NCBI GenBank assembly: GCA_005889275.1
Contig: VBFI01000049.1
Span: 7,214-71,213, forward strand
Length of the DNA: 64,000 bases
Source: Chloroflexota bacterium
GTDB lineage: Bacteria; Chloroflexota; Limnocylindria; P2-11E
Reading direction: 5' to 3'
The notes beneath the pieces are model-generated. The model had not been told where the DNA came from and did no database searches. It saw only the letters and a program-made list of their open reading frames with translations. How positions within the stretch are numbered: the first letter of the stretch is position 1; every line of letters starts with the position of its first letter. Made by a program: the position numbers and the translations under genes. Positions 4,977 through 28,643 of the stretch are shown here, in pieces.

Positions 4977-5001
4977 CTGGAGTCAACGCTAGCGCATGGC
5001 C

Positions 5002-6492
5002 TCAGGGCCGAAGCCACACCGTGCCGAACGACGCGTTCGTCTCGGCGACATACCCGGCGACGCGCGCCGACGCCGCGATCGCGCGATCGACGATCAGGAG
5101 CGGCACGCGGGTCACCTCGGCGCGCGCGAGCTTCGAGACCTGCTTGTAGAGCTCGGCCCGTTTCGACGGGTCGGCCTCCATCCGCGCCTTGCGGAGCAGA
5201 CCGACGATGAGGGACGCGTCCCGCGGATCGTCGGTGCCGAACAGCGGCCAGAACACGTCGTCGGGGTCGAGCCCGACCAGCGTCGTCTCCAGCGCGAGCG
5301 CGCCCCGAACGTCGCGAAGCGCGGCCGCGTCGACGGCCCGCAGGCGCGCGATGATACCGACCTTCGCGAGGTCCGCGGCGATGGACTGCGCGATGCGCTG
5401 TGGATCGGGATACGCCATCGTCGGGAACGCCGGATACGCCAGATCGACGTTGATCGGAACGGCGATGTGGGCGTCGCTCAGGAGCCGCCGCGCGCCGGAG
5501 GGGTCCAGCGGGGCGAACTCGACCACGCTGTCGTCATAGCCGAGCGTGCCGCTCGGGATCACCTGACTCGCCGGGTGCCCAAGACCGTAGTACGGGCCCG
5601 AGAGCGCGCCCCGGTCGATCGCCATCGCCACCGCTCGGCGCGCGTCCGGCTGGTCGAACGGCGTCGCCGCGACGTCGATGCCGAGCGTGGCCGAGGCGGC
5701 GCTCGGGCGCGTGAGCAGGGCGAGGTTCGGATCGCTGCGCGCGGCGGTCGCCTGCGCGACCGGGAGCTCGAGCGCGAGGTCGACCCGTCCGGCCCGGAGC
5801 TCGGCGAAACGCGCGGCCGCGTCGCGGACCGGACGGAGCACGAGACCGTCCAGGTACGGGAGGGTCCGGCCTCCGGAGGTGCGGAGCCAGTACGCCTCGT
5901 TCCGCCGGAGGGTGATCGATCCGTCCGGCGCGAGGGCGTCGGGGGCGGCCGTGAACGGTCCCGTCCCCGACGTCCCCCGCGCGATCCCCGCCTGCGGTGC
6001 GGCAAGGTGGACGAGGAACGGACCGAACGGCGCGCGGAGCTCGAACCGCACGGTCTTGCCGTCGAGCGCGACCACCCGGCTGATCGCGGATGGCTCGTCG
6101 AAGAGCAGCCGGTATGCGCGGGTTCCGCGCCCGCGGTCGAAGCTCGCGACGACCGTCGCGGCGTCGAACGGCGTCCCGTCCGCGAAGGAGATGCCCCCGC
6201 GTAGCGCGAAGGTCCAGCTCGCGCCGTCGTTCGCCATCTGCCACGAGGACGCGAGTCCCGCGGCGACCGCGCCGGTCGCCGGATCGACCGTGACGAGGGT
6301 CTCGAAGATCTGGCGGGTCGCGACCTGCGACGCGCTGTCGGCGTTCCACGGATCCAGGACGGTGACCTCGGCGGGGATCGCGACGCGAAGCGTTCCGCCG
6401 GCCACGACCGCGGACGGCGCCGGCGTGGCGATGGAAGGCACCGCCTGGCACGCGACGAGAAGGAGCGCGAGCCCCGCCGCGACGCGGGCCAT
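5002..6492 (-). CDS. ABC transporter substrate-binding lipoprotein, family 5 (peptide/nickel), SBP1b
   Basis: 496 aa with lipobox LLLVAC. The family-5 SBP fold is inferred by eye. It is the last gene of the SBP1a/permease B1/permease C1 module. Confidence 0.8.
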   Translation of the reverse strand: MARVAAGLALLLVACQAVPSIATPAPSAVVAGGTLRVAIPAEVTVLDPWNADSASQVATRQIFETLVTVDPATGAVAAGLASSWQMANDGASWTFALRGGISFADGTPFDAATVVASFDRGRGTRAYRLLFDEPSAISRVVALDGKTVRFELRAPFGPFLVHLAAPQAGIARGTSGTGPFTAAPDALAPDGSITLRRNEAYWLRTSGGRTLPYLDGLVLRPVRDAAARFAELRAGRVDLALELPVAQATAARSDPNLALLTRPSAASATLGIDVAATPFDQPDARRAVAMAIDRGALSGPYYGLGHPASQVIPSGTLGYDDSVVEFAPLDPSGARRLLSDAHIAVPINVDLAYPAFPTMAYPDPQRIAQSIAADLAKVGIIARLRAVDAAALRDVRGALALETTLVGLDPDDVFWPLFGTDDPRDASLIVGLLRKARMEADPSKRAELYKQVSKLARAEVTRVPLLIVDRAIAASARVAGYVAETNASFGTVWLRP

Positions 6493-6497
6493 GGCGG

Positions 6498-7460
6498 CTA
6501 GCGTGATGACTTCAGGCGGGGGTCGAGCGCGTCGCGCAGGCCGTCGCCCACGAGGTACAGGCAGAGGACGGTCACGAACACCGCGATGCCCGGCGGGTAG
6601 ATGAGGTACGGAGCCTTGCCGAGGTACTGGGCCGCATTGGTGAGCATGTTCCCCCAGGACGGCGTCGGCGGCTGGATGCCGAAGCCGATGAAGGAAATCG
6701 CCGACTCCTGAAGGATGAGCTGGCCGACCTCGATCATCGTGAGCACGATCATGAGCGGCAGGATGTTCGGGAAGAGGTGCCGCAGCATGAGTCGCCCGGG
6801 CGCGCAGCCGACGGTCCGCGCCGCGAGGACGTACTCACGCTCGCGCAGCGAGATCGTCTGCCCGCGCGCGTAATTCGCGATCCCGAGCCACCCAAGCCCC
6901 CCGAGCAGGAGCGCGAAGGGGAGCGGCTGAAGGCGGAAGAGCACTCCCACGATGAGGAGCAGGTAGAGGATCGGGATGCTGTTGAGCGTCGTCACGACCC
7001 AGACCACGACGTCGTCCCACCGGCCGCGGAAGTATCCGGCCGTCAGGCCCATCGTGAGGCCGATCGCGAACGCGGTCAGCGCGCCGAAGCTGCCGATGAA
7101 GAGCGAGACCCGCGCGCCGTAGAGCAGGCGGACGACCTGGCTGCGGCCGAGCTCGTCGGTGCCGAGCCAGAGCCACGGCTGCGCTCCGCTCGGCTTCGTG
7201 TAGTTGTCGAGGATGCTCTGCTCCCCGAAGCCCTTGTGGAAGAAGTTCTCCGCGAGGAGATCGGCCGCGATCGCGACGGCCACCATCGCGACGATCACGG
7301 CGAGCGCGATCAGCGTCGTGGGGTCGTGGCGGAGGCGCCAGAGCGCATCAGACCAGAGTCCGGCGCTGGCGCGGCGCGCCTCGGCCGGGCGGAGCGACCC
7401 GACCGTCGCGGCGACCGCGTCGGCCGCCATCAGCGCACCTTCACGCGAGGGTCGACCCAC
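6498..7460 (-). CDS. Peptide/nickel ABC permease, DppC/OppC type (C1)
   Basis: ABC permease signature region ...IANYARGQTISLREREYVLAARTVG.... The more likely start is the internal Met at 7430, which overlaps the dppB1 stop by 1 nt. Confidence 0.85.
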   Translation of the reverse strand: MGRPSREGALMAADAVAATVGSLRPAEARRASAGLWSDALWRLRHDPTTLIALAVIVAMVAVAIAADLLAENFFHKGFGEQSILDNYTKPSGAQPWLWLGTDELGRSQVVRLLYGARVSLFIGSFGALTAFAIGLTMGLTAGYFRGRWDDVVVWVVTTLNSIPILYLLLIVGVLFRLQPLPFALLLGGLGWLGIANYARGQTISLREREYVLAARTVGCAPGRLMLRHLFPNILPLMIVLTMIEVGQLILQESAISFIGFGIQPPTPSWGNMLTNAAQYLGKAPYLIYPPGIAVFVTVLCLYLVGDGLRDALDPRLKSSR

Positions 7461-8389
7461 GCGTACGCGATGTCTCGCAGCAGGTACGACAGGATGAGCA
7501 GCACGCTCGAGATGAGGAAGCTCGCCTGCACGACGGGATAGTCCTTCGTGACGGCCGCGTCGAACGTGAGCCGGCCGAGACCGGGCCAGTTGAAGACCCG
7601 CTCGATGATCAGCGAGCCGTTGAAGAACACGAGGAGGATCGCGCCGAACAGCGTCACCACCGGGATGAGCGCGTTGCGCAGGATGTGCGCCGCGATCACC
7701 GATCGCTCGCGGAGGCCCTTGCTCCGGGCCGTTCGGACGTAGTCCTGCGAGATGACCTCGAGGACCTCGGTGCGGAGAATCCGCGGGAGATTCGCGATCC
7801 CGGCGATCGAGATCACCGTGACCGGCCCTACAAGATGCCAGAACCGGTCCCAGCAGAGCCCGCAGTCGACGCCGACCGCGTTCATGCTGCCGATCGGAAA
7901 GAACCGGGCCTGCACGCCGAGCGTCAGCACGAAGATGAGACCAAGCCAGAACTGCGGGATCGCGTGCCCGACGACGCTCAGCACGCGGATCGCGTGGTCT
8001 TCGATCCTCCCGCGGCGCAGCGCCGCGACGACCCCGAGCGGCACGCCGACGAGGACGGTAATGAGGAGCGCGAGCATCGAGATCTGCAGGCTGTTGGGAA
8101 TCCGCTCGGTGATGAGGTCGAGCACCGGCCGGTTGAAGTAGAAGGACTTGCCGAAGTCGAGGTGGGCGATCTGCCAGAGCCAGGCCACGAACTGGAGCGG
8201 GAGCGGCTGATCGAGGCCGAGCGAATGCCGCAGCCCCTCACGGTCCTCCGGCGTCACGTCGTACTGCCCGGCGAGCATGAGCTGCAAGGGGTCGGACGGG
8301 GATAGGCGGCCGAGCAGGAACGTGAGGAGCAGGACCCCGAAGAGCGTCGGGATCGCCTGGATGAGGCGGCGCGCGACGAAGCGACCCAG
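7430..8389 (-). CDS. Peptide/nickel ABC permease, DppB/OppB type (B1), apparent CTG start
   Basis: The track ORF (ATG at 8287) lacks TM1. Reading upstream gives LGRFVARRLIQAIPTLFGVLLLTFLLGRLSPSDP, which aligns residue for residue with the paralog B2 N-terminus MWKYVLRRLLYAIPTLLGISIIVFLVTRLAPGDP. The aligned first codon is CTG at 8389-8387, preceded by GGGGGG and a 6-nt spacer. Confidence 0.7.
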   Translation of the reverse strand: MGRFVARRLIQAIPTLFGVLLLTFLLGRLSPSDPLQLMLAGQYDVTPEDREGLRHSLGLDQPLPLQFVAWLWQIAHLDFGKSFYFNRPVLDLITERIPNSLQISMLALLITVLVGVPLGVVAALRRGRIEDHAIRVLSVVGHAIPQFWLGLIFVLTLGVQARFFPIGSMNAVGVDCGLCWDRFWHLVGPVTVISIAGIANLPRILRTEVLEVISQDYVRTARSKGLRERSVIAAHILRNALIPVVTLFGAILLVFFNGSLIIERVFNWPGLGRLTFDAAVTKDYPVVQASFLISSVLLILSYLLRDIAYAWVDPRVKVR

Positions 8390-8447
8390 AGCGTTCCCCC
8401 CTAGCTCCGCTGAGGCCCGGGCGGCCCCCGCCGCCCGAGCCTCGCGA

Positions 8448-10028
8448 CTAGACCGCGGCTACTGCTTGAACCACCACTTCTCGACGTTCCAGATCGCGCT
8501 GTACGTCGATGGATCGAAGCTCTGAAACGACCGGGTTCGCGTAGAAGACGTCGTTGAACTGGTCCTTGCCCGACTGACTGGAGTGCCAGATCGAGTATGG
8601 GTCGGGGTCGGCGCCGAGGGACCACCCGATGATGAACCCCTCGTAGTCGGGTCCGGGCTGGGTGCGGTCCAGGAGCGCGTTGAACGACTCGAGCAACGGA
8701 TCGATCTGGATCCCGATGTCCTTGTACTGCGCCTGGGCGAACTGGAGGATCGTCTCGCGGACGTTGTTCCCCTGGTTCGTCTCGATGCGCATCTTCATCG
8801 GCGAGCCGTCCGTCCAGCGGTAGACGCCGTCGGGGCCCATCTTCGCGCCGGCCTGCTCGATGAGCTGCTTCGCCTTCGTCACGTCGCGCGTGTACTTCGT
8901 CAGTCCGGTCTCGTCATAGGCCCACGACACCGGCGGGGTGTGCGCGTAGACCTGGGAACCGAAGCCGAAGACCACCTTGTTCACGATGGCCGGGGCGTCG
9001 ATCCCGTAGGCGAGCGCCTGGCGGACCTGGACGTTCGCGAGCCAGGGCGCCTTCGCGGCCTTCAGGTTCCAGCCGATGTAGTCGTAGGTCGACGTCTTGT
9101 AGCGGTAGAACTTGAGGGCGTCGTTCTTCGAGACCTCGTCGTTGTCCGAGGGATTCACGGCCGTGGAGTACGTGACCTCGCCGACCATGAGCGCGTTCTT
9201 GATCGCGGTCGCGTCGGCGTAGTTCTTCACGATGAGCTCGTCGACGAGCGGCGCGCCGCGGAAATACTTGTCGTTCTTCGTCATCGCGACCTGCACGCCC
9301 GGTTGGAACGACTTGAAGATGAACGGGCCGATCGACGCCGGCGGGTTCATGTTGAACGGGACGTCGTCGATGTTCTTCGTCGTGTCCGTGGTCTTGTTGT
9401 CCCACTGCGCCTTGAACGCCTTGCTTGGGAGGATCCCGCCGGCGCCGGCGCCACCGAGTGCCGCGGTCGCCGGGCAGAAGACCTTCGTGAACTTGATCGT
9501 GACGGTCTTGCCGGCGTTGCTGACCTGGATCCCCTCGATGTTGTCGGTCTTGCCGGCGCGGTAGTCGGCGGCGCCGACGACGTTGTCGAAGGTGCTGCGC
9601 CGGACCGTCTTCTGACTGCGCATGACCGCTTCGGCGGTGTACTTGTAGTCGTCTCCGGTGAACGGATCGCCGTTGCTCCACACGAGGTTGTCGCGGATCG
9701 TGTAGGTCAGCGTCAGCCCGTCCGAGCTGATCTCGAACTTCGACGCGAGGTTCGGCTCGGTCTCGCCGGTCTTGTAGTTCGAACGGGTCAGGCTCAGGTA
9801 GAACCACTGCCAGATTCCGCTCGAGGTCGTGTCGCCCGAGATGACCGGCTGCATCGTCTTCGGGTCGCCGGTCGATCCGATCACCACCCTGCCGCCGGCG
9901 ACCGGCTGCTCCGACGGGCCGGCCGAAGCGCTCGTCGAAGGCCCGCCGGTGGGGGCGCATGCGGTCGCGATCAGCGTGAACACGGTCAGGGCCGCGATGA
10001 CCACTCGTGGGATCCCCTGCTGCCGCAC
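8448..10028 (-). CDS. Family-5 SBP lipoprotein SBP1a (paralog of SBP2) with a C-terminal deletion/frameshift; possible pseudogene
   Basis: N-terminus MRQQGIPRVVIAALTVFTLIATACAPTGG matches SBP2 MQQHRTSRVLIAGLAALTLIATACAPTGG. The C-terminus ends in a non-homologous tail, VQRDLERREVVVQAVAAV. The conserved end WNVEKWWFKQ-stop (SBP2 has WNVHEWWIKK-stop) sits in the +1 frame about 50 codons early. Confidence 0.7.
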   Translation of the reverse strand: MRQQGIPRVVIAALTVFTLIATACAPTGGPSTSASAGPSEQPVAGGRVVIGSTGDPKTMQPVISGDTTSSGIWQWFYLSLTRSNYKTGETEPNLASKFEISSDGLTLTYTIRDNLVWSNGDPFTGDDYKYTAEAVMRSQKTVRRSTFDNVVGAADYRAGKTDNIEGIQVSNAGKTVTIKFTKVFCPATAALGGAGAGGILPSKAFKAQWDNKTTDTTKNIDDVPFNMNPPASIGPFIFKSFQPGVQVAMTKNDKYFRGAPLVDELIVKNYADATAIKNALMVGEVTYSTAVNPSDNDEVSKNDALKFYRYKTSTYDYIGWNLKAAKAPWLANVQVRQALAYGIDAPAIVNKVVFGFGSQVYAHTPPVSWAYDETGLTKYTRDVTKAKQLIEQAGAKMGPDGVYRWTDGSPMKMRIETNQGNNVRETILQFAQAQYKDIGIQIDPLLESFNALLDRTQPGPDYEGFIIGWSLGADPDPYSIWHSSQSGKDQFNDVFYANPVVSELRSIDVQRDLERREVVVQAVAAV

Positions 10029-10075
10029 CCTCCTGCTCCTTTCCTGAGCGAGAAAACGCGAGTCTAGGCAAAGGC
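10029..10075 (-). promoter_or_regulatory. Conserved 5' leader/RBS region of SBP1a, duplicated upstream of SBP2
   Basis: Plus strand ctcctgctcctttcctgagcgagaaaacgcgagtctaggca is nearly identical to 13852-13895, ctcctgctccttttcctgagcgagaacgtcgcgagtctaggca. On the mRNA it includes the AGGAAAGGAGCAGGAG ribosome-binding region. Confidence 0.4.
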
Positions 10076-10166
10076 CGGCTCGGTCGCCGCCCTCATCTAT
10101 ACCCGCGTACGCGCCGCCCCGTTCGCGCGATCACGCGCGCCGAGCGGGCAAGCAAGAAGGATCGGA

Positions 10167-11090
10167 CTAGCGCGACTTGAGGCGCGGGTCGAGCGCGTCG
10201 CGCAGGCCGTCGCCGATGAGGTAGAGGCAGAGCACGGTCAGGAAAATCATCGCCCCGGGCGACACGACGAGCCACGGAGCGCGGTTGAAGTACGAAGACG
10301 CGTTGGTGAGCATGTTGCCCCATGACGGCGTCGGCGGGACGATCCCCAGGCCGAGGTAGCTGAGGGCGGACTCCGCGAGGATGATCGTGCCGACGTCGAT
10401 CGCCGTGAGGACGAAGATGAGCGGAAGGATGTTCGGGAGGATGTGGCGGAGCATGATCCGCCACGGCGTCGCCCCCACCGTCCGAGCGGCGGTGACGAAC
10501 TCGCGCTCGCGAAGCGCGAACGTCTGACCGCGCACGAAGTTCGTGATGCCGGTCCAGAAGACCGCCCCGATGATGATGGTCAAGGTGATCGGGCTCGGCG
10601 CGAAGAGCGCCGCGAAGATGATGAGCAGAAACAGCGTTGGGATCGAGTTCAGCGTGGTGATGAACCAGGTGATGACGTCGTCGATGGCGCCGCGGAAGTA
10701 TCCGGCGACGAGCCCGAGCAGCACGCCGATGGTGAGCTGGATGAAGGCGGCCATGAATCCGACGAACAACGAGACCTGCCCGCCGTAGAAGAGCCGGACC
10801 GCCTGGCTGCGCCCGACCTCGTCGCTGCCGAACACGAATCCCGGCGGGTCGAGGGTCGGCGCCGCGTAAGTGCGGAGGAGATCCTGCTTCTCGAAGGTCG
10901 TGCGGAACACGAGCTCGGCGAGGACCGGAGCGCCGATCGAGAGCACGATGATCGTGCCCAGTACCGCCGCCGCGATCATCGTCAGGCGATCGCGACGCAG
11001 GCGGTACCACGCGGTCGACCAGAGCCCCGCGGAGGCCCGCGGCTCGGGCGCGCCCGCGGCCCGCGCCGCGACCTGCGCGCGGACGGCCAC
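10167..11090 (-). CDS. Peptide/nickel ABC permease, DppC/OppC type (C2)
   Basis: Paralog of C1 (ASAGLWSTAWYRLRRDRLTMIAAAVLG versus ASAGLWSDALWRLRHDPTTLIALAVIV). Likely GTG start at 11090-11088, overlapping the B2 stop. The longer track ORF is upstream read-through. Confidence 0.8.
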   Translation of the reverse strand: MAVRAQVAARAAGAPEPRASAGLWSTAWYRLRRDRLTMIAAAVLGTIIVLSIGAPVLAELVFRTTFEKQDLLRTYAAPTLDPPGFVFGSDEVGRSQAVRLFYGGQVSLFVGFMAAFIQLTIGVLLGLVAGYFRGAIDDVITWFITTLNSIPTLFLLIIFAALFAPSPITLTIIIGAVFWTGITNFVRGQTFALREREFVTAARTVGATPWRIMLRHILPNILPLIFVLTAIDVGTIILAESALSYLGLGIVPPTPSWGNMLTNASSYFNRAPWLVVSPGAMIFLTVLCLYLIGDGLRDALDPRLKSR

Positions 11091-12049
11091 TATTTCACCT
11101 TGATGCGCGGATCCACGATCGCGTAGGCGACGTCCCGGATCAGATAGCTCAGCACGAGGAGCGTGCTCGCGACCATCACGCCCGCCATGATCACCGGGTA
11201 GTCGCGGCTCCGCGCCGCGGCGTAGGTGAACTGGCCCACGCCCGGCCACGTGAAGACCTGCTCGACGACGAGCGCTCCGGAGACCAGGACGGCGAGGATG
11301 CCACCGAGTGCCGTGACCATGGGGATGAGCGCGTTGCGCAGCGCGTGGACGTACACGACCGTCCGCTCGCCGAGCCCCTTCGCGTGCGCGGTGCGGACGT
11401 AGTCCTGCGAGATGACGTCGAGGGTCTCGGTGCGCAGATAGCGCGAGTAGTTCGCGATCCCCGCGAGAGCGAGGACGAACGAGGGCATGATGATGTGGCG
11501 TATTCGGTCGGGGACGTCCCAGATGTCCTTGCCGACGGTGAGCACCCCCTGGCTCGGCAGCAGGCGCAGCGTGACCGACACGAGGATGATCGCCATGAGG
11601 CCGAGCCAGAACTGCGGGATCGCGTGCCCGATGACGCCGAAGACGCGGATGACGTTGTCGACCCAGCTGCCGCGCCGGAGCGCCGCCATGACCCCGAGCG
11701 GTATCCCGATGGCGAGCTGAAGGAAGAGGGCGGTGAACGCGAGCTGCAGCGTCGCGCCCATGCGCTCGAAAAGCAGTCCGAGCGCGGGCTGGTGGTACTG
11801 GAGCGACATGCCGAAGTCGCCGCGTACGACCTTGGTGATCCAGCTCACGTACTGGATCCAGAGCGGCTGGTCCAGCCCGTAGTACGCGCGAAGCCCCTGG
11901 ATGTCTTCTTCGGTCACGTTCAGCGCGCCGAAGGTGTAGAGGCGTACGGGATCACCCGGGGCGAGCCGCGTGACGAGGAACACGATGATCGAGATGCCGA
12001 GGAGCGTGGGAATCGCGTAGAGGAGCCTCCGCAGGACGTATTTCCACAT
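11090..12049 (-). CDS. Peptide/nickel ABC permease, DppB/OppB type (B2)
   Basis: 319 aa, MWKYVLRRLLYAIPTLLGISIIVFLVTRLAPGDP...; canonical DppB architecture. Confidence 0.88.
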   Translation of the reverse strand: MWKYVLRRLLYAIPTLLGISIIVFLVTRLAPGDPVRLYTFGALNVTEEDIQGLRAYYGLDQPLWIQYVSWITKVVRGDFGMSLQYHQPALGLLFERMGATLQLAFTALFLQLAIGIPLGVMAALRRGSWVDNVIRVFGVIGHAIPQFWLGLMAIILVSVTLRLLPSQGVLTVGKDIWDVPDRIRHIIMPSFVLALAGIANYSRYLRTETLDVISQDYVRTAHAKGLGERTVVYVHALRNALIPMVTALGGILAVLVSGALVVEQVFTWPGVGQFTYAAARSRDYPVIMAGVMVASTLLVLSYLIRDVAYAIVDPRIKVK

Positions 12050-12124
12050 CTGGGCTGAGACCTCCCGACGACAGAGGGGCGGTGGCCGAACGCCACCGCC
12101 CCAGGTCGTCCGATCAGCGCGTCG

Positions 12125-13849: not shown

Positions 13850-13851
13850 GC

Positions 13852-13895
13852 CCCTCTCCTGCTCCTTTTCCTGAGCGAGAACGTCGCGAGTCTAG
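13852..13895 (-). promoter_or_regulatory. Conserved 5' leader/RBS of SBP2 (copy of the SBP1a leader)
   Basis: See 10029-10075; about 40 nt near-identical. Confidence 0.4.
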
Positions 13896-13988
13896 GCAGG
13901 GCCCGCCCGCACGGCAGAACCCCCCACAGCTATACCGGCGGCCGGCCGGCCGCGTTCGGATGAAGCGGCGCGCGCGACCGCTTGCTGA

Positions 13989-15038
13989 CTAGGCGCCCGG
14001 GAAGTGGCAGGCAGCCCAGTGACGCGGCTCGTGCTCGATGAACTCGGGGTCCACCTCCGAGCAGATCTGCTGCGCCTTCCAGCAACGGGTGTGGAAACGG
14101 CAGCCGGATGGAGGGTTCACCGGTGATGGCACGTCGCCGGTGAGGATGATCCGCTTGCGCTTCGACTCGACCGCCGGGTCCGGGATCGGCACGGCGGAGA
14201 GGAGCGCCTGGCTGTACGGATGGAGCGGCCGCTCGTAGAGGTCGACGCGGTCGGCGAGCTCGACGATCTTGCCGAGATACATGACCGCGACGCGGTCGCT
14301 GATGTGGCGCACCACGGACAGGTCGTGGGCGATGAACAGGTATGTGAGCTTGAACCGGTCCTGCAGCTCCTCGAGCAGGTTGATGACCTGCGCCTGGATG
14401 GAGACGTCGAGCGCGGAGATCGGCTCGTCGCACACGATGAACTCGGGCTCGACCGCGAGCGCGCGGGCGATCCCGATCCGCTGCCGCTGGCCGCCGGAGA
14501 ACTCGTGCGGGTAGCGGTTCGTGAAGTACGGGTTGAGACCGACGACGCGGAGGAGCTCCTGCACGCGTTCGGTCTTCTCGTGGCCCTTCGCGAGGTTGTG
14601 CACCTCGAGAGGCTCTCCGATGATGTTCCCGACGGTCATCCGCGGGTTCAGCGAAGCGTACGGGTCCTGGAAGATCATCTGCAGCCGGCGGCGCATCTTG
14701 CGCATCTGCTCGCCACCGAGCTTCGTCAGCTCGACGCCGTCGAAGACCACCGCGCCGGCGGTGGGCTTGTAGAGCTGGAGGATCGCGCGGCCGGTCGTGG
14801 ACTTGCCGCAGCCGGACTCGCCGACCAGACCGAGCGTCTCGCCCTTCTCGACGAAGAAGTCGATCCCGTCGACGGCGCGGACGGCGCCGACCTGACGCTG
14901 GAAGATGATCCCCTGCGTGAGCGGGAAGTGCATCTTGAGCGCCTTCACCTCGAGCAGGTTCTTCCCGCTTCCCGCGGTCGCGGTGCTTCGGACGCGCGTG
15001 AACTCCGCGTCCGAGGGCGGTGGTGTCGTTACGGCCAT
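13989..15038 (-). CDS. Oligopeptide/dipeptide ABC transporter ATP-binding protein, DppF/OppF type
   Basis: 349 aa. Walker [10 protein letters not shown], signature [15 protein letters not shown], and an oligopeptide C-terminal domain with CRFHTRC. Confidence 0.88.
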
Positions 15039-15050
15039 TGCTGCACCCCT

Positions 15051-16181
15051 CTAGTTCACCGGCGACGGCGGCGGGAGCGGCGGCTCCTCACCGTCCTTCT
15101 TCGTTTCGGCCGGAAGATCCGCGACTTCCTTCTTGATCTCCTCGATCACGCGGGTATCGCCGATCTCACGATGCCAGTCGGTGTCCACGAGCCACCCGCC
15201 CTCCTGCGTCCCCCAGCAGCGCGCCTCGTGGTCGGGCTTGGCGTTCGGGATCCGCTTGAGCTCCGGCTCCTTCTCTTTGCAGACGTCGCGCCGGTACTGA
15301 CAGCGCGGCTCGAAACGGCACCCCGGCGGCGGGGCGATCAGGTCCGGGGGGAGACCCTCGATCGGGACCAGCTTCGCCTTGCGGTGTTCGTCGAGGCGTG
15401 GGATCGAGCGAAGGAGGCCCCATGTGTACGGCATCTTCGGGTTGGCGAAGAGCTCGGCGGTGTCCGCCTTCTCGACGATCTTGCCGCCGTACATGACGTG
15501 GATGCGCTGGGTCATGCCGGCGACGACCCCGAGGTCGTGGGTGATGAGGATGAAGGCCGTGCGGAATTCCCGCGCGAGGTTCTTCAGCAGGTCGAGGATC
15601 TGTGCCTGAATGGTGACGTCGAGGGCCGTCGTCGGCTCGTCGGCGAGGATCAGCTTGGGGTTGCACGAAAGGGCCATCGCGATCATGACGCGCTGACGCA
15701 TGCCCCCCGAAAACTGGTGGGGGTAGTCGTCGAGCCGCTTCTTCGCGCTCGGGATGCCGACGAGATCCAGCAGCTCGATGGTGCGCTTGCGGGCTTCGCT
15801 CTTGTCCATCTTGAGATGCAGCTCGAGCGCCTCGGAGATCTGCCGGCTGATCGTGAGCACCGGATTCAGGCTCGTCATGGGGTCCTGGAAGATCATCGCG
15901 ATGTTGTTGCCGCGGATGCCCCGGACCTCGTCGTCGTCCATCTTCAGGACGTCCTGACCGTCGAAGACGATCGATCCTTCCGTGATCCGCCCAGGCGGCT
16001 GCGGGATGAGGCGCATGAGCGAGAGCGCGGTGACCGACTTCCCGCAGCCGGATTCGCCGACGAGGCCGAGCGTCTCGCCGGCCTCGAGGTGGAACGTCAC
16101 GCCGTCGACGGCGTGCACCACGCCGTCGCGCGTGAAGAACTGCGTGTGCAGGTCCTTGACGTCTAAGAGCTGCTGGGCCAC
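15051..16181 (-). CDS. Oligopeptide/dipeptide ABC transporter ATP-binding protein, DppD/OppD type, with a C-terminal extension of about 55 aa
   Basis: 376 aa. [32 protein letters not shown]; then an extra tail ...WLVDTDWHREIGDTRVIEEIKKEVADLPAETKKDGEEPPLPPPSPVN. Confidence 0.85.
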   Translation of the reverse strand: MAQQLLDVKDLHTQFFTRDGVVHAVDGVTFHLEAGETLGLVGESGCGKSVTALSLMRLIPQPPGRITEGSIVFDGQDVLKMDDDEVRGIRGNNIAMIFQDPMTSLNPVLTISRQISEALELHLKMDKSEARKRTIELLDLVGIPSAKKRLDDYPHQFSGGMRQRVMIAMALSCNPKLILADEPTTALDVTIQAQILDLLKNLAREFRTAFILITHDLGVVAGMTQRIHVMYGGKIVEKADTAELFANPKMPYTWGLLRSIPRLDEHRKAKLVPIEGLPPDLIAPPPGCRFEPRCQYRRDVCKEKEPELKRIPNAKPDHEARCWGTQEGGWLVDTDWHREIGDTRVIEEIKKEVADLPAETKKDGEEPPLPPPSPVN

Positions 16182-16226
16182 CGCTCCCCACCGCCCCGCC
16201 AGAATTCCGCGCAGTCTAGCAACGCT

Positions 16227-17189
16227 TTAGATCTTCATCCGTGGATCGAGGGCGTCCCGGAGGCCGTCGCCGACGAAGGTGAAGGCCAGCAGGATGATCG
16301 AGATGCAGAAAGCCGGGAGCAGAACCGGCCACGGCGTCGCCTGGAAGACGATGAATCCTTCGTTGATCATCGCGCCCCAGGTGGGCGTCGGAGGCCGTAC
16401 CCCGATCCCGAGGAAGGAGAGCGTCGCCTCGGTCAGCATGGCGCCCGGGATGGCGAACGCGAGCGAAACGATCACCGGGGCGAGCACGTTCGGGAAGAGG
16501 TGCCGGATCATGATCCGCACCGGGGTCGCGCCGATGGCCCGAGCCGCTTCGATGAACTCGCGGTGTTTCAGCGAGAGCACTTGACCGCGAATGAGCCGGG
16601 CGAGGCCGACCCAGTTCACGATCGCGAGCGCCACGAAGATGAGGAGGAGCCCGTCCATGGCCGTCCCGAGCTCCGTCCCGCGGAGCGTCGCGACGATGAT
16701 GATCACGAAAAGGAGATCGGGGAACGCGTAGATGATGTCGGTGAAGCGCATGAGGAGGTTGTCGACCCAACCGCCGACGTAGCCCGAGACCATGCCGATG
16801 CTCGCTCCGACGACGAAGATCACCGCGACGGGGACGAATCCGACGATGAGGCTCACGCGCGTCCCGTACATGAGCCGGGTCAGGATGTCCCGGCCAAGCT
16901 CGTCCGAACCGAGGAGATAGCCGGAGTCGGTGAACTGGCTACCGAACCACCTCGTCCAGATGGGCTCCATGAGCTGCTTCGGAGTGTTTTGCTGGATCGG
17001 GGAGTACGGGGCGATGATCGGGGCGAAGATCGCGACGAACGCGGCGAAGACGATCACCGCGAGCCCGGCGATCGCCGCCCGATTACGAAAGAGGCGCCAT
17101 ACCGCGTCGCGCCAGAGGGACCGCTGCTTGCGGGCGGCCAGATCGTGCTGGGCGGCCTGTCTGCGGGTGCTGACCGCCGTCGTCGCCAT
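16227..17189 (-). CDS. Peptide/nickel ABC permease, DppC/OppC type (C3)
   Basis: 320 aa. Permease signature AIVNWVGLARLIRGQVLSLKHREFIEAARAIG. Confidence 0.88.
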   Translation of the reverse strand: MATTAVSTRRQAAQHDLAARKQRSLWRDAVWRLFRNRAAIAGLAVIVFAAFVAIFAPIIAPYSPIQQNTPKQLMEPIWTRWFGSQFTDSGYLLGSDELGRDILTRLMYGTRVSLIVGFVPVAVIFVVGASIGMVSGYVGGWVDNLLMRFTDIIYAFPDLLFVIIIVATLRGTELGTAMDGLLLIFVALAIVNWVGLARLIRGQVLSLKHREFIEAARAIGATPVRIMIRHLFPNVLAPVIVSLAFAIPGAMLTEATLSFLGIGVRPPTPTWGAMINEGFIVFQATPWPVLLPAFCISIILLAFTFVGDGLRDALDPRMKI

Positions 17190-18145
17190 CAGCTGACCTT
17201 GATCCGCGGGTCGAGCGCGCCGTACACGATGTCGACGGTGATGTTCGCGATCATGATCACGAAGGCGTAGAGCAGCGTCGTCGACATGATCATCGGATAG
17301 TCGCGCTGGTTGATGCTGATGACGTACAGCCGGCCGATGCCCGGCACGTTGAAGAGCGATTCGATGATGAACGATCCGGTGATGAGGCCCGCGGTGGCCG
17401 GCCCGATGATCGTGGCCACCGGGATGAGCGCGTTCTTGAGCGCGTGCCCGACGATGACCGACTGCTCCCGCAGGCCCTTCGCGCGCGCGGTCCGCACGTA
17501 GTCCTGGCGGATCGCCTCGAGCATGCTCGCCCGCGTGATGCGGGTGAGGAACGCGCCCGGCGCGAGCGCGAGAACGAACGTGGGCATGACCATGTGCTGC
17601 CAGGTGCCCCAGCCGACGAACGGCAGGAGGTGCAGCGACGCGCCGAGGACGTAGATGAGGAAGATGGCGGTGACGAAGCTCGGAATCGTCGTACCGATCG
17701 TCGCGATCAGCAGGCTCAGATAGTCGAGCGGCGTGTTCTGCTTCAGGGCGCTGACGATGCCGAGCGGGATCGAGAACGCGAGGGCCACGATGAGGGCCTG
17801 GACGCCGAGCTGCGCGGTCGTTCCGATCCCCTGTCCGATGAGGTCGACGACGGGTCGTCCGCGAGTGAAGCTCAGGCCGAGATCACCGCGGAGAAGGTTC
17901 CCGATGTAGTCGACGAACTGGACCGGTATCGGCTGGTCGATGCCGTAGTAGCGGTTGATCTTGTCGAGCTGCTCCTGCGGGAGCGGGCGATTCTCGTTGC
18001 GATCGAAGGGACTCCCGGGTGCGAGGTGCGCCAGCGAGAAGGTGATGAGCGCGACGAAGAACATCGTCGGAATGATCAGGAGGAGTCGGCGAATGACGTA
18101 TCTGAGCACTGCCTTGAGTCCGAGTGTATAGCCCGAAACGTCCAA
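17189..18145 (-). CDS. Peptide/nickel ABC permease, DppB/OppB type (B3)
   Basis: 318 aa, ...VLRYVIRRLLLIIPTMFFVALITFSLAHLAPGSPF.... Confidence 0.88.
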   Translation of the reverse strand: MDVSGYTLGLKAVLRYVIRRLLLIIPTMFFVALITFSLAHLAPGSPFDRNENRPLPQEQLDKINRYYGIDQPIPVQFVDYIGNLLRGDLGLSFTRGRPVVDLIGQGIGTTAQLGVQALIVALAFSIPLGIVSALKQNTPLDYLSLLIATIGTTIPSFVTAIFLIYVLGASLHLLPFVGWGTWQHMVMPTFVLALAPGAFLTRITRASMLEAIRQDYVRTARAKGLREQSVIVGHALKNALIPVATIIGPATAGLITGSFIIESLFNVPGIGRLYVISINQRDYPMIMSTTLLYAFVIMIANITVDIVYGALDPRIKVS

Positions 18146-18209
18146 AGTGCGTCGTGCAAAACAAAAGGGGCCGGCTCGCGCCGGCCCCTTTTTGTCGACT
18201 CGAAGAGCG

Positions 18210-19973
18210 TTAGGTCTTCTTCGTCACGTAGACGTCGGTGAATCGCGCGATCTCGAACCCGAGGGCGGTGATGTAGTAGTTCTTCACCCACGGCTTCTGG
18301 AGGATCTTCGTCGCGCCGTAGTAGATGAACGCCGCGGCGGCGTCCTGCGAGAGGAGCCGCGACGCCTGCTGGTACATGTCGTCGCGCTTCTTGGAGTCGC
18401 CTTCTTTGTCCGCCGCGAAGACCAGGTCGTCGAACTGCTTGCTGGTGTAGCCAACACGACCTGATGAGGCCTTCGAAGAGAAGACCGTCGTCAGCCAGTC
18501 CTGCTGGTCGTAGTAGTCCGGGCACCAGCCGAGAAGGAACATGAGCGGGAGCGTCTCGGGCTTCTTGACCAGCTGCGTGAACGTGGTGGAGTCGACCGGG
18601 TCGAGCGTGATGTTGGCGTTCAGGTTGGTCTTCCACTGCTGCTGGAACCACTCGAGACGCGTCTTGTTCCGGGCGTTCGCGGAGTAGGTGATCTTCACGT
18701 CGGCGAGGGCGGCCGTCGCCGCCGGTGCCGCCTGCGCGAGCGCCGCCTTCGCGGCGGCCGGGTCGAACTTCTGGAAGGTGTCGCCGGCGTCGTAGCCCGG
18801 GAGACCGGGTGAGATGAAGGAAGTCGACGGCTTGCCGATCTTCTGGACGTCGTTGATGTACGCGTCGCGGTCGAAGGACTTCGCGAACGCGACGCGGACG
18901 TTCTTGTCGTTGAACGGAGCCTTGCGGTTGTTGAAGCCGACGTAGTAGCTGCAGCCGTCCGGGCCGTCCACGACCTGCTTCTTGAGGTCGGCGTCGCCGT
19001 CGATCGTGCGGAGGTCTTCCGCGGCCACGCCGTAGAGATCGATCTCGTTGTTGCGGTACGCGGCGAAGGCGACCGCGCCCTCGGTGATCATGACGACGGT
19101 CCACTTCGCGAGCTTGGTCGGGGTCCGGTAGTTCGGGTTGCGGGTAAAGACCATCTTCTCGTTGTGCTTCCACTCGCTGAGGACGAAGGGACCGTTGCCG
19201 ATGAACGTCGCGGGCTCGGTCCACTTGTCGCCACCCTTGGTGACGGTGTCCTCACGAGCTGGTGCGCCGACCCAGATGCTCGCGATCGCGTTGAAATACG
19301 GCGCCGGGTCGGTGAGCTTGAAGGTGATGTCGTTGCCGCTGACGGTGATGTTGCTCAGGAAGTCCGTCTTCGCGGATGCGAGCTTCGCCGGGTCGTCCTT
19401 CTTCGGGTCCATCGAGTTCCAGGCTTCGCAGCCCGCGACGATGTAACCGGTGAAGGCGTACTCACCCGCGGTCGCCGGGTCGCAGAGGCGCTGCCACCCG
19501 TACTTGAAGTCGTTCGCGGTGATCGCCTTGCCGTCCGAATACTTGAGACCGTCGCGGAGCGTGTACGTGTAGGTCTTCCCGTCCGCACTGATCTTCGGCT
19601 GGTCCTTCGCCGCGGCGGGAATCACCTTGCCCGTCTTCACATCGGCCGTCATGAGCGCCTCGAAGACCCTCATGGTGACGCCGATCTCGTCGACGAACGA
19701 CTCCTTTTGCGGGTCGATGGTGTCGGGCTCGCCGCCCACGCGGGTGGTGAGCTCGCCGTTCGGGTCCGCCTGGTCCGTCCCGCCGCCGGTGCTGGGGCCG
19801 CCGCCCTGCTGCGTGCAGGCGCTGACGACGAGTCCCAGGAGCGTCAGGAGGGTCAGGAGCGGAAGGATGCGACTGCGACTTGCGGTCAAGATCCGCCTCC
19901 CTCTCTCTTCTCGTTTGGGTTTGCGCGAATTCTGGGCCATTGTCAGTACCGACGCCACCCGGGACGGGTTCAT
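18210..19973 (-). CDS. Family-5 SBP lipoprotein SBP3
   Basis: Start MNPSRVASVLTMAQNSRKPK...LLTLLTLLGLVVSAC (lipobox). The ATG at 19973-19971 overlaps the SBP4 stop as ATGA. The longer track ORF is read-through. Confidence 0.8.
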   Translation of the reverse strand: MNPSRVASVLTMAQNSRKPKREERGRRILTASRSRILPLLTLLTLLGLVVSACTQQGGGPSTGGGTDQADPNGELTTRVGGEPDTIDPQKESFVDEIGVTMRVFEALMTADVKTGKVIPAAAKDQPKISADGKTYTYTLRDGLKYSDGKAITANDFKYGWQRLCDPATAGEYAFTGYIVAGCEAWNSMDPKKDDPAKLASAKTDFLSNITVSGNDITFKLTDPAPYFNAIASIWVGAPAREDTVTKGGDKWTEPATFIGNGPFVLSEWKHNEKMVFTRNPNYRTPTKLAKWTVVMITEGAVAFAAYRNNEIDLYGVAAEDLRTIDGDADLKKQVVDGPDGCSYYVGFNNRKAPFNDKNVRVAFAKSFDRDAYINDVQKIGKPSTSFISPGLPGYDAGDTFQKFDPAAAKAALAQAAPAATAALADVKITYSANARNKTRLEWFQQQWKTNLNANITLDPVDSTTFTQLVKKPETLPLMFLLGWCPDYYDQQDWLTTVFSSKASSGRVGYTSKQFDDLVFAADKEGDSKKRDDMYQQASRLLSQDAAAAFIYYGATKILQKPWVKNYYITALGFEIARFTDVYVTKKT

Positions 19974-21547
19974 CGGGCGAACGTCCAGCGATATACGTTC
20001 CACGAGAGCGGGGCCGAGGAGGGCGGTGGCTGAAGATCCGCGAGCGCCTGCGGGGCGACGTCGACCCGGAGCTCTTGATAGAGCGGCAGCGCGGGGAGGA
20101 CCGAGGCCCAGAGCCGCTCCATCTCGGCGTAGATCGCGCGCTTTTCGCCGCGGTCGGGCGCGGCGACCGCCGCCGACGCGAGGACGTCGAACCATGGATC
20201 GACGAGGCCGGCCCAGCGTTCGGAGGCGAGGCGCGGATCCGCTGCGTCCTCCGGAGCGATCGCGAGATCGAAGCGCCCGGTGGCGATGTCCGAGCGCAGG
20301 TCGGCAAGCGATCGCTCGCGGACATCCGCGGCGATCCCGACCGCGGCGAGGTCGCCGGCGACACGCCGGGCGACGTCCGTGCGGGCGACCGATCCCGCGG
20401 CGACGAGCACGGTGGCGGTCATCCGCTCGCCTGCCCGCTCGAGGATGCCGAACTGGCCCTTTGTGAATCCGGCTCCGGCGAGCAACGCGCGCGCGCGGTC
20501 GCGGTCCGGGGCGACGGCCGGCACGGTCTCGTCGGCCGATGCCCAGAGCGGGGGCAGAAGGTAGGTGCGTGGTACGAGGGCCCGTCCGACGAAGACATCA
20601 TCGACGATCGACTTCCGGTCCACGGTGAGCTCGACCGCCTTACGAACGCTCGCGTCGCCGAAGCGTTTGGGATCGGCGCCGAACCGGAGCACTTCGAGCG
20701 CCTCCGCGGGCTTGTAGTACGCCTGGAGGCGCGTGCCGTCGGCGAACCGGTCGAGCGTCTTCGCGAGATCCGCTTCGAGGACCGGCCACGGAACGAGGTC
20801 GACGTCGCCGCGGAGCAGCGCCTGCAGCGCCGCGGCACGCGTCGGGAGGAAATGGATCTCGATGCGTCCGAGCCCGGGCGCGCCGAGCGCATACGACTTG
20901 AACGACGAGAGCGTGATGTTCCCCGGCAGCCACGCGGCGATCGCGAAGGGGCCGGCATGGACCGGCTCGCGCGCGTACGCCGCGAGTTGCGGCGCCGTCG
21001 CGCCCAAAAGACGGTGCCGCGGGAGCACGCGTGGACCGAGCGCGTAGTCGTCCCACCGCTCGCCGTCGCGGTAGAGCACCCGAAGGTCGCGCGGTCCGAG
21101 CACCTCGACACGATCGATGCGGTCGGCGTTCCAGCGGAGCGCCGTTCCCGGCGCTTCCTGCGAGTCCCGCTCCCACGCGAAGCGCACGTCGGACGCGGTG
21201 ATCGCCTCGCCGTCCTGCCAGGTCGCGTCGCGCAAACGGAATGTCGCGACGAGACGTCCGCTCGGGGCGGTCGGGTCGTCGGTCACCACCCGGAGGGCGC
21301 CGTTCTCGAGCGTGGGCACGGACTCGGCGAGCCGCGGCACGAGCTCGTCGTGCTCGTCACGGACGACCAGCGTTTCGGTCACGGCCGCCGCGAGAAAACG
21401 CGCGGACGGGTCGTCGTCGAACACCGTGCGCGGCTCGCCGACCAGCCCGACGACGAGGTCACGCCGCGGCGGAGGCGTCGAGGCGCACGCCGTCCCGAGG
21501 ACGATGCCGAGAGCGACGACGTACGCGGCGCGCGCGGTGGAGATCAG
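19970..21547 (-). CDS. Family-5 SBP lipoprotein SBP4; start uncertain (no canonical start codon ahead of the signal peptide)
   Basis: Mature part ...LISTARAAYVVALGIVLGTACASTPPPRRDLVVGLVGEPRTVFDDDPSARF.... The only codon that gives a signal peptide is CTG at 21547-21545, which overlaps the anti-sigma TGA as CTGA. Confidence 0.6.
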   Translation of the reverse strand: MISTARAAYVVALGIVLGTACASTPPPRRDLVVGLVGEPRTVFDDDPSARFLAAAVTETLVVRDEHDELVPRLAESVPTLENGALRVVTDDPTAPSGRLVATFRLRDATWQDGEAITASDVRFAWERDSQEAPGTALRWNADRIDRVEVLGPRDLRVLYRDGERWDDYALGPRVLPRHRLLGATAPQLAAYAREPVHAGPFAIAAWLPGNITLSSFKSYALGAPGLGRIEIHFLPTRAAALQALLRGDVDLVPWPVLEADLAKTLDRFADGTRLQAYYKPAEALEVLRFGADPKRFGDASVRKAVELTVDRKSIVDDVFVGRALVPRTYLLPPLWASADETVPAVAPDRDRARALLAGAGFTKGQFGILERAGERMTATVLVAAGSVARTDVARRVAGDLAAVGIAADVRERSLADLRSDIATGRFDLAIAPEDAADPRLASERWAGLVDPWFDVLASAAVAAPDRGEKRAIYAEMERLWASVLPALPLYQELRVDVAPQALADLQPPPSSAPLSWNVYRWTFAR

Positions 21548-22122
21548 CGCGGTGTGGCGGTCGGGTTGGTGACGATCTCCACCTGTTCGACTTCGACGTC
21601 GTAGCGTCCGCCCGCCGGAAGCCGGACCGTGCTGCGGACGATGACGGGCGCGCCTGCCGCGGCGGTCTGCGCGCGCAGCCAACGGAAGTAGTCGATGCTC
21701 GTGTCGTCGACGGGTGGCTGCGCCCGGAAGTAGTCGCGGATCACCGAGTGTGGCGCCGGCGCCGCCGTCTGCTGCTCGACCGATCCGGTCAGGGCGAAGA
21801 GCGCCACGCCGAGGGCGACCGAGACCTCGGCGAAGCGCGCGAAGAGCGCCGGTGCGCGAAGCCAGGTCGTCGGCTCTTCGCGTCGGCTGCCCAGGGCGGC
21901 GAGACGCACTCGGCCAGGGGCGACCGCGGCACGCTGCGACCGCAGGGGCGCGAAGGCGCGCTCGAGCGCGCGGTCGATGGCGACTGCGTCGCGGAGGGCT
22001 TCGGCGCAGTCGAGGCACGTCGCGGCGTGCGCCTCGAGATCAAGGCGCTCGCGCACCGACAGCGAGCCGGTCGCGCCGGCGTACGGGACCACTGACGTGC
22101 AACCGCGAGCGAAGATCCTCAT
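21544..22122 (-). CDS. Anti-sigma factor, ZAS family (H-X3-C-X2-C) with one TM helix
   Basis: MRIFARGCTSVVPYAGATGSLSVRERLDLEAHAATCLDCAEALRDAV...VSVALGVALFALTGSV. The ATG overlaps the sigma stop as ATGA. Confidence 0.75.
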   Translation of the reverse strand: MRIFARGCTSVVPYAGATGSLSVRERLDLEAHAATCLDCAEALRDAVAIDRALERAFAPLRSQRAAVAPGRVRLAALGSRREEPTTWLRAPALFARFAEVSVALGVALFALTGSVEQQTAAPAPHSVIRDYFRAQPPVDDTSIDYFRWLRAQTAAAGAPVIVRSTVRLPAGGRYDVEVEQVEIVTNPTATPR

Positions 22123-26513: not shown

Positions 26514-26632
26514 GCCGGGTCTCCGGCCCTCGGCCGCAAGACGCGCACATGGCTGGTGGTCTCGCTCGTCGCGGCCAGGGGAAGGGGCCCCTGAGCGCGA
26601 AGCGCCACGCTCCTCGCTCGTTCCACCCTTGA

Positions 26633-27037
26633 CTAATCCGCTCCGGCGCCGGCGGTCTCGCCGATATGCGAGCGGTAGTCGGCTGGAGAAAGGAGCTTCG
26701 CGAGCTCGCCTTTGTCGGCGAGGCGGACCTTGACCATCCAGCCGTCGCGGTAGGGGTCCGTGTTCACGAGCTCGGGGCTCTCGATGACTTTGACGTTCCG
26801 CTCCAGGACCTCGCCAGAGATCGGCGCGTAGATGTCGGACGCGGCCTTCACCGATTCGACCACGCCGAGGCTCGAGTACTGGCGCACCGTGGCGCCCTTC
26901 TCGGGAAGCTCGACGAAGACGACGTCTCCGAGCTGCTCCTGCGCGAAGTGCGTGATGCCGATCGTGGCCACGTCCCCGTCCGCACGCACCCACTCGTGCT
27001 CCTTGGAGTAGCGCAGATCGTCGGGAACGGTGCTCAC
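26633..27037 (-). CDS. gcvH: Glycine cleavage system H protein (lipoyl carrier)
   Basis: 134 aa, ...[21 protein letters not shown]... (lipoyl-Lys motif). Confidence 0.9.
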
Positions 27038-28607: not shown

Positions 28608-28643
28608 CGGGTTTGAAGCCTCCCCGGAGTGTCGCGGTGGAGT

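Follow-up and report, generated by a model that had tools for sequence, protein, structure and literature searches.

Three Opp/Dpp-type permease pairs accompany a single, putatively shared ATPase pair in a conserved Limnocylindria gene array

A 64-kb stretch of DNA (hereafter the window; ~70% G+C) from an uncultured soil Chloroflexota bacterium of the class Limnocylindria encodes, on the minus strand between positions 5002 and 21547, an array of ATP-binding cassette (ABC) importer genes comprising 5 family-5 binding proteins (SBP_bac_5), 3 OppB/OppC-type permease pairs, and 1 OppD/OppF-type ATPase pair. The gene order given for this array in an earlier note on the same DNA (SBP4, SBP3, B3, C3, D, F, SBP2, B2, C2, SBP1a, B1, C1, and SBP1b) is identical to the order of the corresponding Pfam domains. 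The family-5 domain (PF00496) was detected in 5 open reading frames (ORFs) with E-values of 2e-45 to 4e-72. Of the permeases, 3 combine BPD_transp_1 with BPD_transp_1_N (OppB type) and 3 combine BPD_transp_1 with OppC_N (OppC type), and the EAA loop regions of the 3 B/C pairs could be aligned, in line with the 2 permeases that characterize transporters of the PepT family. All 5 binding proteins carry Cys-containing, lipoprotein-like signal peptides, as judged by eye, and no NCBIfam equivalog model that would assign a substrate scored above its cutoff for any of them. Positions of all features are collected in Table 1.

Within the array, the combination of ABC_tran and oligo_HPY (PF08352) is confined to 2 ORFs, D and F, for which OppD and OppF are the best NCBIfam models. 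Neither tblastn searches with D and F nor a scan for Walker-A and signature motifs revealed a further Opp-type ATPase in the window, whose remaining ABC ATPases are limited to SufC (1217-2008, above the cutoff of TIGR01978) and an MsbA-like exporter. Hence, a single module, SBP3-B3-C3 (module 3), is accompanied by the 2 oligo_HPY ATPases expected per transporter, while SBP2-B2-C2 (module 2) and SBP1a-B1-C1 (module 1) are devoid of them, as the earlier note had described. That note had regarded additional DppD/DppF genes just outside the array as the observation that would speak against such an arrangement; none was found in the 5 kb downstream or the 42 kb upstream. A homology search with D returned only orthologues among the 120 matches listed (64-94% identity, with a single one below 78%) and thus offers no view of paralogous D/F pairs. 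The C-terminal ~60 residues of D and F, which form the oligo_HPY tail, contain 4 cysteines each (GCRFEPRC...VC...RC in D and GCRFHTRC...IC...AC in F), which resembles the tails that have been reported to bind Fe-S in some Opp-type ATPases.

Species-representative genomes were scanned with an SBP2/SBP1a alignment, and the resulting 66 loci were annotated by BLAST against the window proteins (related loci and contigs that were compared with the window are designated by L-numbers). Almost all close loci originate from Chloroflexota metagenome-assembled genomes (MAGs), many of which are labelled Candidatus Limnocylindria. They share a core consisting of genes for an NlpC/P60 peptidase, a sigma factor of the extracytoplasmic function (ECF) type, an anti-sigma factor, and SBP4, followed by SBP3-B3-C3-D-F, SBP2-B2-C2, in part SBP1b, the MsbA-like exporter, and SufC, which was seen in L009, L013, L015, L016, and L017, and partly in L008, L014, and L041. 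SBP2-B2-C2 is located downstream of D-F in all 10 loci with a visible upstream flank (L007, L009, L012-L017, L041, and L055), and these loci span 65-88% SBP2 identity. Only the window, L007, L037, and L055 have module 1 inside the array, and in genomes without it (L008 and L013-L017), SBP1b directly follows C2. Therefore, SBP1b is a tail gene of the core and not, as had been assumed in the earlier note, the second binding protein of module 1. The assignment of SBP4 to the module that contains D and F had to be revised as well, since this gene goes together with that of the anti-sigma factor and is situated upstream of the promoter-like motif of module 3 described below. The slot after C2 harbors module 1 in some genomes and another ATPase-less module in L009, is empty elsewhere, and seems to be a hotspot for module addition. 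The L009 module (L009:13707-17598) encodes a binding protein only 25% identical to SBP2 and permeases with 40-42% identity, and is preceded by GAAC-N18-GTAC. Among distant homologues in other phyla, D/F genes accompany the module, either in the order SBP-B-C-D-F (L048) or in the order D-F-SBP-B-C (L050, Bacillus methanolicus). Permease pairs without ATPases were also found in other Chloroflexota loci (L058-L060, L066, L067, and L071), and a locus from an uncultured Caldilinea (L046) combines 1 D/F pair with 3 B/C pairs and lacks the Limnocylindria promoter-like motif.

The absence of ATPase genes is not restricted to modules embedded in the array. Homologues of SBP1a-B1-C1 with 58-80% identity stand alone in many loci, and for at least 10 of these (L021, L024, L025, L028, L029, L031, L034, L036, L042, and L045), BLAST at E = 1e-4 and a motif scan identified no ABC ATPase within ~5-10 kb on either side, so that energizing in trans must be normal in this lineage. 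The flanks of L024, for which Pfam likewise revealed no ABC_tran domain, encode a histidine kinase, HD-domain response regulators, a divergently oriented major facilitator superfamily (MFS) protein, and an HtrA-like protease, among others. Several MAGs hold both the array with D/F and a stand-alone module (e.g., L009 with L045 and L010 with L031).

Moreover, the ATPase-less modules bear the marks of purifying selection. In comparison to near-identical contigs, single-nucleotide polymorphisms (SNPs) in B1, C1, SBP1a, B2, C2, and SBP2 are almost all synonymous, with synonymous/non-synonymous counts of 16/0 for B1, 21/0 for the 5' 1.5 kb of SBP1a, and 5-14/0 per comparison for B2, and those in SBP4 are mostly synonymous. 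The ratio of non-synonymous to synonymous substitution rates (dN/dS) against orthologues ranges from 0.05 to 0.34 across all genes. Values of 0.08-0.27 for B1, C1, B2, and C2 (C1, 0.17; C2, 0.13-0.27) compare to 0.17-0.23 for B3 and C3, while 0.05 was obtained for F, 0.07 for D, 0.18 for SBP4, and 0.28-0.31 for SBP1b. Modules 1 and 2 are thus conserved and, at the population level, intact yet lack an ATPase gene of their own, as is typical for importers that depend on a multitask ATPase, and there is strong comparative support for the ATPase-less modules being functional and energized in trans.

The 3 units led by SBP3, SBP2, and SBP1a each start with a bipartite motif, GAAC-N18-GTA(T/C). Within the 64 kb, both strands included, these are the only 3 matches (1.4 expected), all of them on the minus strand. 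In 41 related loci (548 kb), 34 of 37 same-strand matches preceded an SBP1a-, SBP2-, or SBP3-type gene by 30-160 nt, compared to 4 matches on the opposite strand, and the motif was present at 34 of the 46 such genes that have enough upstream sequence; in L009, the site upstream of SBP3 is a GTAA variant. In the outgroup loci, the motif occurred at background level only. The resulting logo is c(T/C)GAAC(c/g)-N-(C/G)GTA(T/C), and in 41 distinct instances of (T/C)GAAC(C/G)-N17-(C/G)GTA(T/C), the spacing is invariant, while the sequence of the spacer is variable. ECF promoters carry a characteristic AAC at -35 and CGT at -10, sigma-W using TGAAAC and CGTA (PMC5758882). With its asymmetric, bipartite layout, AAC in the -35 position, (C/G)GTA in the CGT-like -10 position, and a fixed spacing, in keeping with the ~16-17 nt expected of ECF promoters, the motif resembles an ECF-sigma promoter of the sigma-W type, and it would be expected to function as one. 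In L024, it lies inside the ~107-nt gap between the module and the divergently oriented MFS gene; this gap must hold the promoter of the module, which lends indirect support to transcription starting at the motif.

The earlier note had also raised the question of a promoter in the gap between F and SBP2 (13850-13988). Such a promoter is probably present, as indicated by the conserved ECF-type motif and an additional conserved TAGACT at 13894-13889. The 2 gaps of ~139 nt between F and SBP2 and between C2 and SBP1a are paralogous and share the bipartite motif as well as the sequence CTAGACT, which occurs in 4 copies in the window, 3 in intergenic gaps of the array and a fourth at 28641-28647. 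The copy between C3 and D may allow D-F to be expressed independently of SBP3-B3-C3 as well, as would be expected of a shared component. Furthermore, folding of the intergenic regions revealed that each leading binding-protein gene is followed by a strong hairpin, the one behind SBP3 having a T-tract; hairpins in this position are the usual device by which binding proteins are produced in excess over permeases. No match to Rfam was obtained at gathering thresholds for the whole window, so that the gaps hold no known riboswitch or leader.

Taken together, we consider it probable that the array encodes 3 co-regulated import units of the Opp/Dpp family (PepT), SBP3-B3-C3-D-F, SBP2-B2-C2, and SBP1a-B1-C1, and that B2C2 and B1C1 recruit D/F ATPases in trans, most probably this very pair. 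Each unit would be led by its binding-protein gene and the ECF-type motif, and the hairpin behind the leading gene would ensure that the binding protein is made in excess of the permeases. A single heterodimeric D/F energizer would then serve the translocators B3C3, B2C2, and B1C1 by docking onto EAA coupling helices in any of the permease pairs that is available, while each translocator would be fed by its own leading binding protein, with SBP4 and SBP1b acting as accessory binding proteins. Of the shared-energizer proposal put forward in the earlier note, the part that concerns functional modules energized in trans is well supported by synteny, stand-alone homologues, and dN/dS; that the donor is this particular D/F pair, and that it is physically shared, we infer from synteny and the common promoter-like motif.

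Several observations weigh against this proposal. While B1, B2, C1, and C2 share 55-69% identity with B3/C3 in their coupling-helix windows (compared to 35-39% overall identity), and the windows of all 3 pairs are 55-74% identical among each other (35-55% overall), a Caldilinea outgroup permease is equally similar, so that this similarity is compatible with sharing but does not discriminate. Other D/F pairs elsewhere in the genome could serve modules 1 and 2, and the frameshift in SBP1a may impair module 1 in the strain or assembly at hand. In addition, a simple sigma-70 consensus scan gave 0 sites, and a terminator scan remained near background. Regarding regulation, the regions upstream of the sigma and nlpC genes in the window, L013, L015, and L016 contain no exact copy of the bipartite motif.

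The stand-alone SBP1a-B1-C1 modules of relatives clearly use distant ATPases, and soil bacteria usually encode many ATPases of the Opp type. It is, thus, conceivable, although rather unlikely in our view, that modules 1 and 2 are functional but energized by distant Opp/Dpp ATPase pairs, their adjacency to D/F reflecting co-regulation or history. The invariable position of SBP2-B2-C2 next to D-F across the informative loci, despite the divergence of SBP2, argues for a closer relationship, as do the promoter-like motif common to all 3 modules and the lack of a second D/F pair within the 64 kb. Which of the modules owns D-F is ambiguous, as SBP-B-C-D-F is the canonical order but D-F-SBP-B-C also exists. 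A self-contained D-F-SBP2-B2-C2 operon from which module 3, taken in the earlier note to be their owner, borrows the ATPases is, therefore, an alternative to be taken seriously, albeit not the one we would expect: the B. methanolicus locus combines this order with a binding protein of the SBP1a/SBP2 type, a conserved TAGACT element of its own precedes D in the gap behind C3, and neither the terminator scan nor intergenic folding revealed a terminator after F. However, D is separated from C3 by only 45 nt, compared to 139 nt between F and SBP2, SBP2 has its own promoter-like motif, and the canonical order is found in L048. Either way, 1 pair would serve 3 translocators.

In contrast, it is extremely improbable that duplicated operons lost their ATPase genes and left modules 1 and 2 behind as inactive remnants. 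Although the frameshifted SBP1a of the window and the lack of canonical start codons in B1 and SBP4 could be taken as signs of decay, full-length SBP1a is encoded on 4 near-identical contigs, the CTG start of B1 behind a Shine-Dalgarno-like sequence recurs in 3 genomes, and intact orthologues of the modules exist across many MAGs. The remnant explanation is rejected primarily because of the purifying selection on both modules, evident from nearly exclusively synonymous SNPs and dN/dS values of 0.08-0.27.

The proposed sharing of D/F by several import units has counterparts and contrasts among characterized transporters. The canonical OppABCDF and DppABCDF systems (PepT, TC 3.A.1.5) of Escherichia coli and Salmonella, as well as AppDFABC of Bacillus, are composed of the same parts, namely a family-5 binding protein, an OppB and an OppC permease, and 2 oligo_HPY ATPases, and they likewise exhibit a hairpin after the binding-protein gene. 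However, they represent self-contained five-gene units, whereas 3 permease pairs and 5 binding proteins accompany a single D/F pair here, and homologous three-gene modules occur with no ATPase nearby. In this respect, the array is reminiscent of the multitask ATPases of sugar importers, MsmX of Bacillus subtilis, MsmK of Streptococcus pneumoniae, and MsiK of Streptomyces, for which sharing has been shown experimentally (PMC7658222). In both cases, ATPase genes are missing from several importer loci, and 1 ATPase is expected to energize several translocators. MsmX, MsmK, and MsiK belong to the CUT1 sugar family, are MalK-like homodimers, and are usually encoded at an orphan locus, whereas D and F are of the OppD/OppF type and form a heterodimeric oligo_HPY pair inside a client operon, with sharing deduced from sequence. 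The array would, therefore, work like a multitask-ATPase system without belonging to this group.

Several family-5 binding proteins feeding a single transporter are familiar from E. coli, where MppA uses OppBCDF. The same applies to Pseudomonas aeruginosa, in which DppA1-A5 are reported to use 1 DppBCDF (PMC4206461). This may also apply to SBP4 and SBP1b; however, only binding proteins are multiplied in these cases, whereas the array multiplies permease pairs as well. The Dpp inventory of B. subtilis lists DppD and YkfD together with DppB, DppC, and DppE (PMC11466899, Table 1) and, thus, provides an example of a PepT operon without a full ATPase pair, whose partner ATPase is assigned from another operon, but it misses 1 of the 2 ATPases, whereas modules 1 and 2 miss both. 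Our literature search, itself incomplete, retrieved no description of heterodimeric Opp/Dpp ATPases being shared, of Opp-type permease pairs that routinely lack both ATPases, of an ECF-type regulon for such pairs, or of a direct precedent for an ECF sigma factor linked to binding proteins.

Beyond the claims of the earlier note, this analysis adds the conserved promoter-like motif and its link to an ECF sigma/anti-sigma pair, which is encoded directly upstream of the array in a position that is conserved in relatives. The anti-sigma factor is a membrane protein with an HxxxCxxC zinc motif, and its orthologues in the same position are 41-45% identical. We hypothesize that the motif is controlled by this neighboring ECF sigma factor. 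Since no autoregulatory copy was found, the link between the two is circumstantial; in L009, the sequence GGAAC-N17-CGTC is located ~40 nt upstream of the sigma gene. FecI/FecR is an established example of an uptake system under ECF-sigma control, and the array resembles it in that an ECF sigma factor and a zinc-type anti-sigma factor are encoded beside transport genes. It differs in the lack of a detected autoregulatory motif copy and in its putative sensor, which would be the lipoprotein SBP4 and not an outer-membrane receptor. A more far-reaching, and distinctly unlikely, possibility is that the ECF sigma factor, the zinc anti-sigma factor, and the translationally coupled lipoprotein SBP4 form a ligand-sensing switch that turns on all motif-marked modules, including the stand-alone ones, all of which would use the single D/F pair, itself equipped with its own TAGACT element, in a hub-and-spoke manner. 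Such a switch would be a monoderm counterpart of FecA-FecR-FecI. If this were true, the multitask-ATPase principle would extend to heterodimeric Opp-type ATPases, and a binding-protein-linked mode of ECF signaling would be defined.

Limnocylindria are an abundant, uncultured class in soil and freshwater that is thought to rely on external peptides (PMC13212565). If D/F pairs are shared as proposed, the uptake capacity of these organisms would be underestimated by counts of 'complete' peptide transporters in their genomes, and new substrate specificities could be added cheaply as three-gene modules. The promoter-like motif, moreover, provides a handle with which the whole regulon could be traced in MAGs and co-expression be examined in metatranscriptomes.

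Table 1. Positions of genes and candidate regulatory elements in and around the importer array.
Feature	Position	Strand	Evidence and remarks
MsbA-like ABC exporter	3102..4976	-	Pfam ABC_membrane + ABC_tran; kept after SBP1b in L013-L017, L037, L055
SBP1b, family-5 binding protein, signal peptide with Cys (LLVAC), core-array tail gene	5002..6492	-	SBP_bac_5 7e-57
C1, OppC-type permease, module 1	6498..7430	-	BPD_transp_1 + OppC_N; 57% identical to C2
B1, OppB-type permease, module 1, apparent CTG start	7430..8389	-	BPD_transp_1 + BPD_transp_1_N
G+C-rich hairpin after SBP1a	8412..8443	-	RNA folding of intergenic region
SBP1a, family-5 binding protein, module 1, truncated allele	8448..10028	-	SBP_bac_5 2e-67
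CTAGACT, -10-hexamer-like (TAnnnT), upstream of SBP1a	10061..10067	-	Motif occurrence in window
Promoter-like GAAC-N18-GTAT upstream of SBP1a	10099..10124	-	Window scan; conserved in orthologues
C2, OppC-type permease, module 2	10167..11090	-	BPD_transp_1 + OppC_N
B2, OppB-type permease, module 2	11090..12049	-	BPD_transp_1 + BPD_transp_1_N
G+C-rich hairpin after SBP2	12076..12102	-	RNA folding
SBP2, family-5 binding protein, module 2	12125..13849	-	SBP_bac_5 1e-63; 45% identical to full-length SBP1a
CTAGACT, -10-hexamer-like, upstream of SBP2	13889..13895	-	TAGACT or near variants conserved in SBP2 orthologues
Promoter-like GAAC-N18-GTAT, F-to-SBP2 gap	13932..13957	-	Window scan; conserved in orthologues
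F, OppF/DppF-type ATPase	13989..15038	-	ABC_tran + oligo_HPY; 88-98% identical in relatives
D, OppD/DppD-type ATPase	15051..16181	-	ABC_tran + oligo_HPY; 78-94% orthologues abundant in metagenomes
CTAGACT, -10-hexamer-like, 45-nt C3-to-D gap	16213..16219	-	Conserved in L009, L013, L015, L016, L055
C3, OppC-type permease, module 3	16227..17189	-	BPD_transp_1 + OppC_N
B3, OppB-type permease, module 3	17189..18109	-	BPD_transp_1 + BPD_transp_1_N; start 18109 agrees with 306-aa gene call in L001
Terminator-like hairpin after SBP3, GGGGCCGGC...GCCGGCCCC then TTTTGTTTTG	18157..18193	-	RNA folding
SBP3, OppA-like family-5 binding protein, module 3	18210..19889	-	SBP_bac_5 4e-72; TTG start behind GGGAGG
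Promoter-like GAAC-N18-GTAC upstream of SBP3, overlaps SBP4 end	19946..19971	-	Window scan; orthologous sites in L013, L015, L016, L041
SBP4, divergent family-5 binding protein, apparent CTG start overlapping anti-sigma stop	19970..21547	-	SBP_bac_5 2e-45
Putative zinc-binding anti-sigma factor	21544..22122	-	HAATCLDC motif, one membrane-spanning segment; weak zf-HC2 match, E = 0.013
ECF sigma factor	22119..22784	-	Sigma70_r2/r4; NCBIfam TIGR02937 82.5 bits vs cutoff 42.9
NlpC/P60 + SH3 cell-wall peptidase, overlaps sigma start	22781..23620	-	Pfam; upstream of sigma in L013, L015, L016

The D protein was found without any change on 23 metagenome contigs. In the 6 of these that were compared, which come from independent metagenome assemblies, the array is present with 98.9-99.9% identity to the window and, therefore, does not represent an assembly artifact. 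As for SBP1a, the window lacks 152 bp at 8526/8527 that 4 near-identical contigs (L001-L004) carry (L001:17656-17807). The resulting frameshift leads to a protein of 526 aa with 26 foreign C-terminal residues, compared to 573 aa for the full-length form, and no obvious repeat flanks the deletion. The SBP1a of the window could be either a truncated real allele or an assembly error. Further irregularities among the near-identical contigs include an indel in SBP4 (L001, ~4576-6156) as well as broken or rearranged stretches in SBP4/SBP3/B3 (L006, ~2978-7400) and in SBP1a (L002, ~16100-17200), which may stem from differences among strains of the population or from noise in the assemblies.

Furthermore, 2 genes of the array are devoid of canonical start codons. 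In B1, there is no ATG, GTG, or TTG between the upstream stop codon and residue 33, and the codon that aligns with the initiator Met of B2 is a CTG (8389-8387) behind a Shine-Dalgarno-like GGGGGG. The same position is occupied by CTG with a similar purine-rich run in L007 (6463) and L033 (~11790), and by ATG or GTG in L037, L024, and L055. SBP4 lacks a canonical start ahead of its signal peptide in 5 genomes: in the window, a CTG (21547-21545) overlaps the TGA of the upstream gene, CTG codons are likewise found in L013 (2298) and L015 (~2290), so positioned that the CTG of SBP4 overlaps or abuts the stop codon of the anti-sigma gene, and L016 and L009 do not even contain an in-frame CTG. Because both genes are under purifying selection, they are considered to be translated, and they likely begin by non-canonical initiation at CTG; taken together, the pattern suggests non-canonical or termination-coupled initiation in Limnocylindria. 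A programmed frameshift that fuses the anti-sigma factor to SBP4 was considered as well and dismissed, since the two genes do not have the same relative frame in L013 as in the window.

The remainder of the window is occupied by genes of general metabolism. The NlpC/P60 gene at the upstream end of the conserved core lies 23 nt behind a split glycine-cleavage operon (gcvT, gcvPA, and gcvPB; 23644-29136), and it is conceivable that the importers are linked to the turnover of cell-wall peptides.

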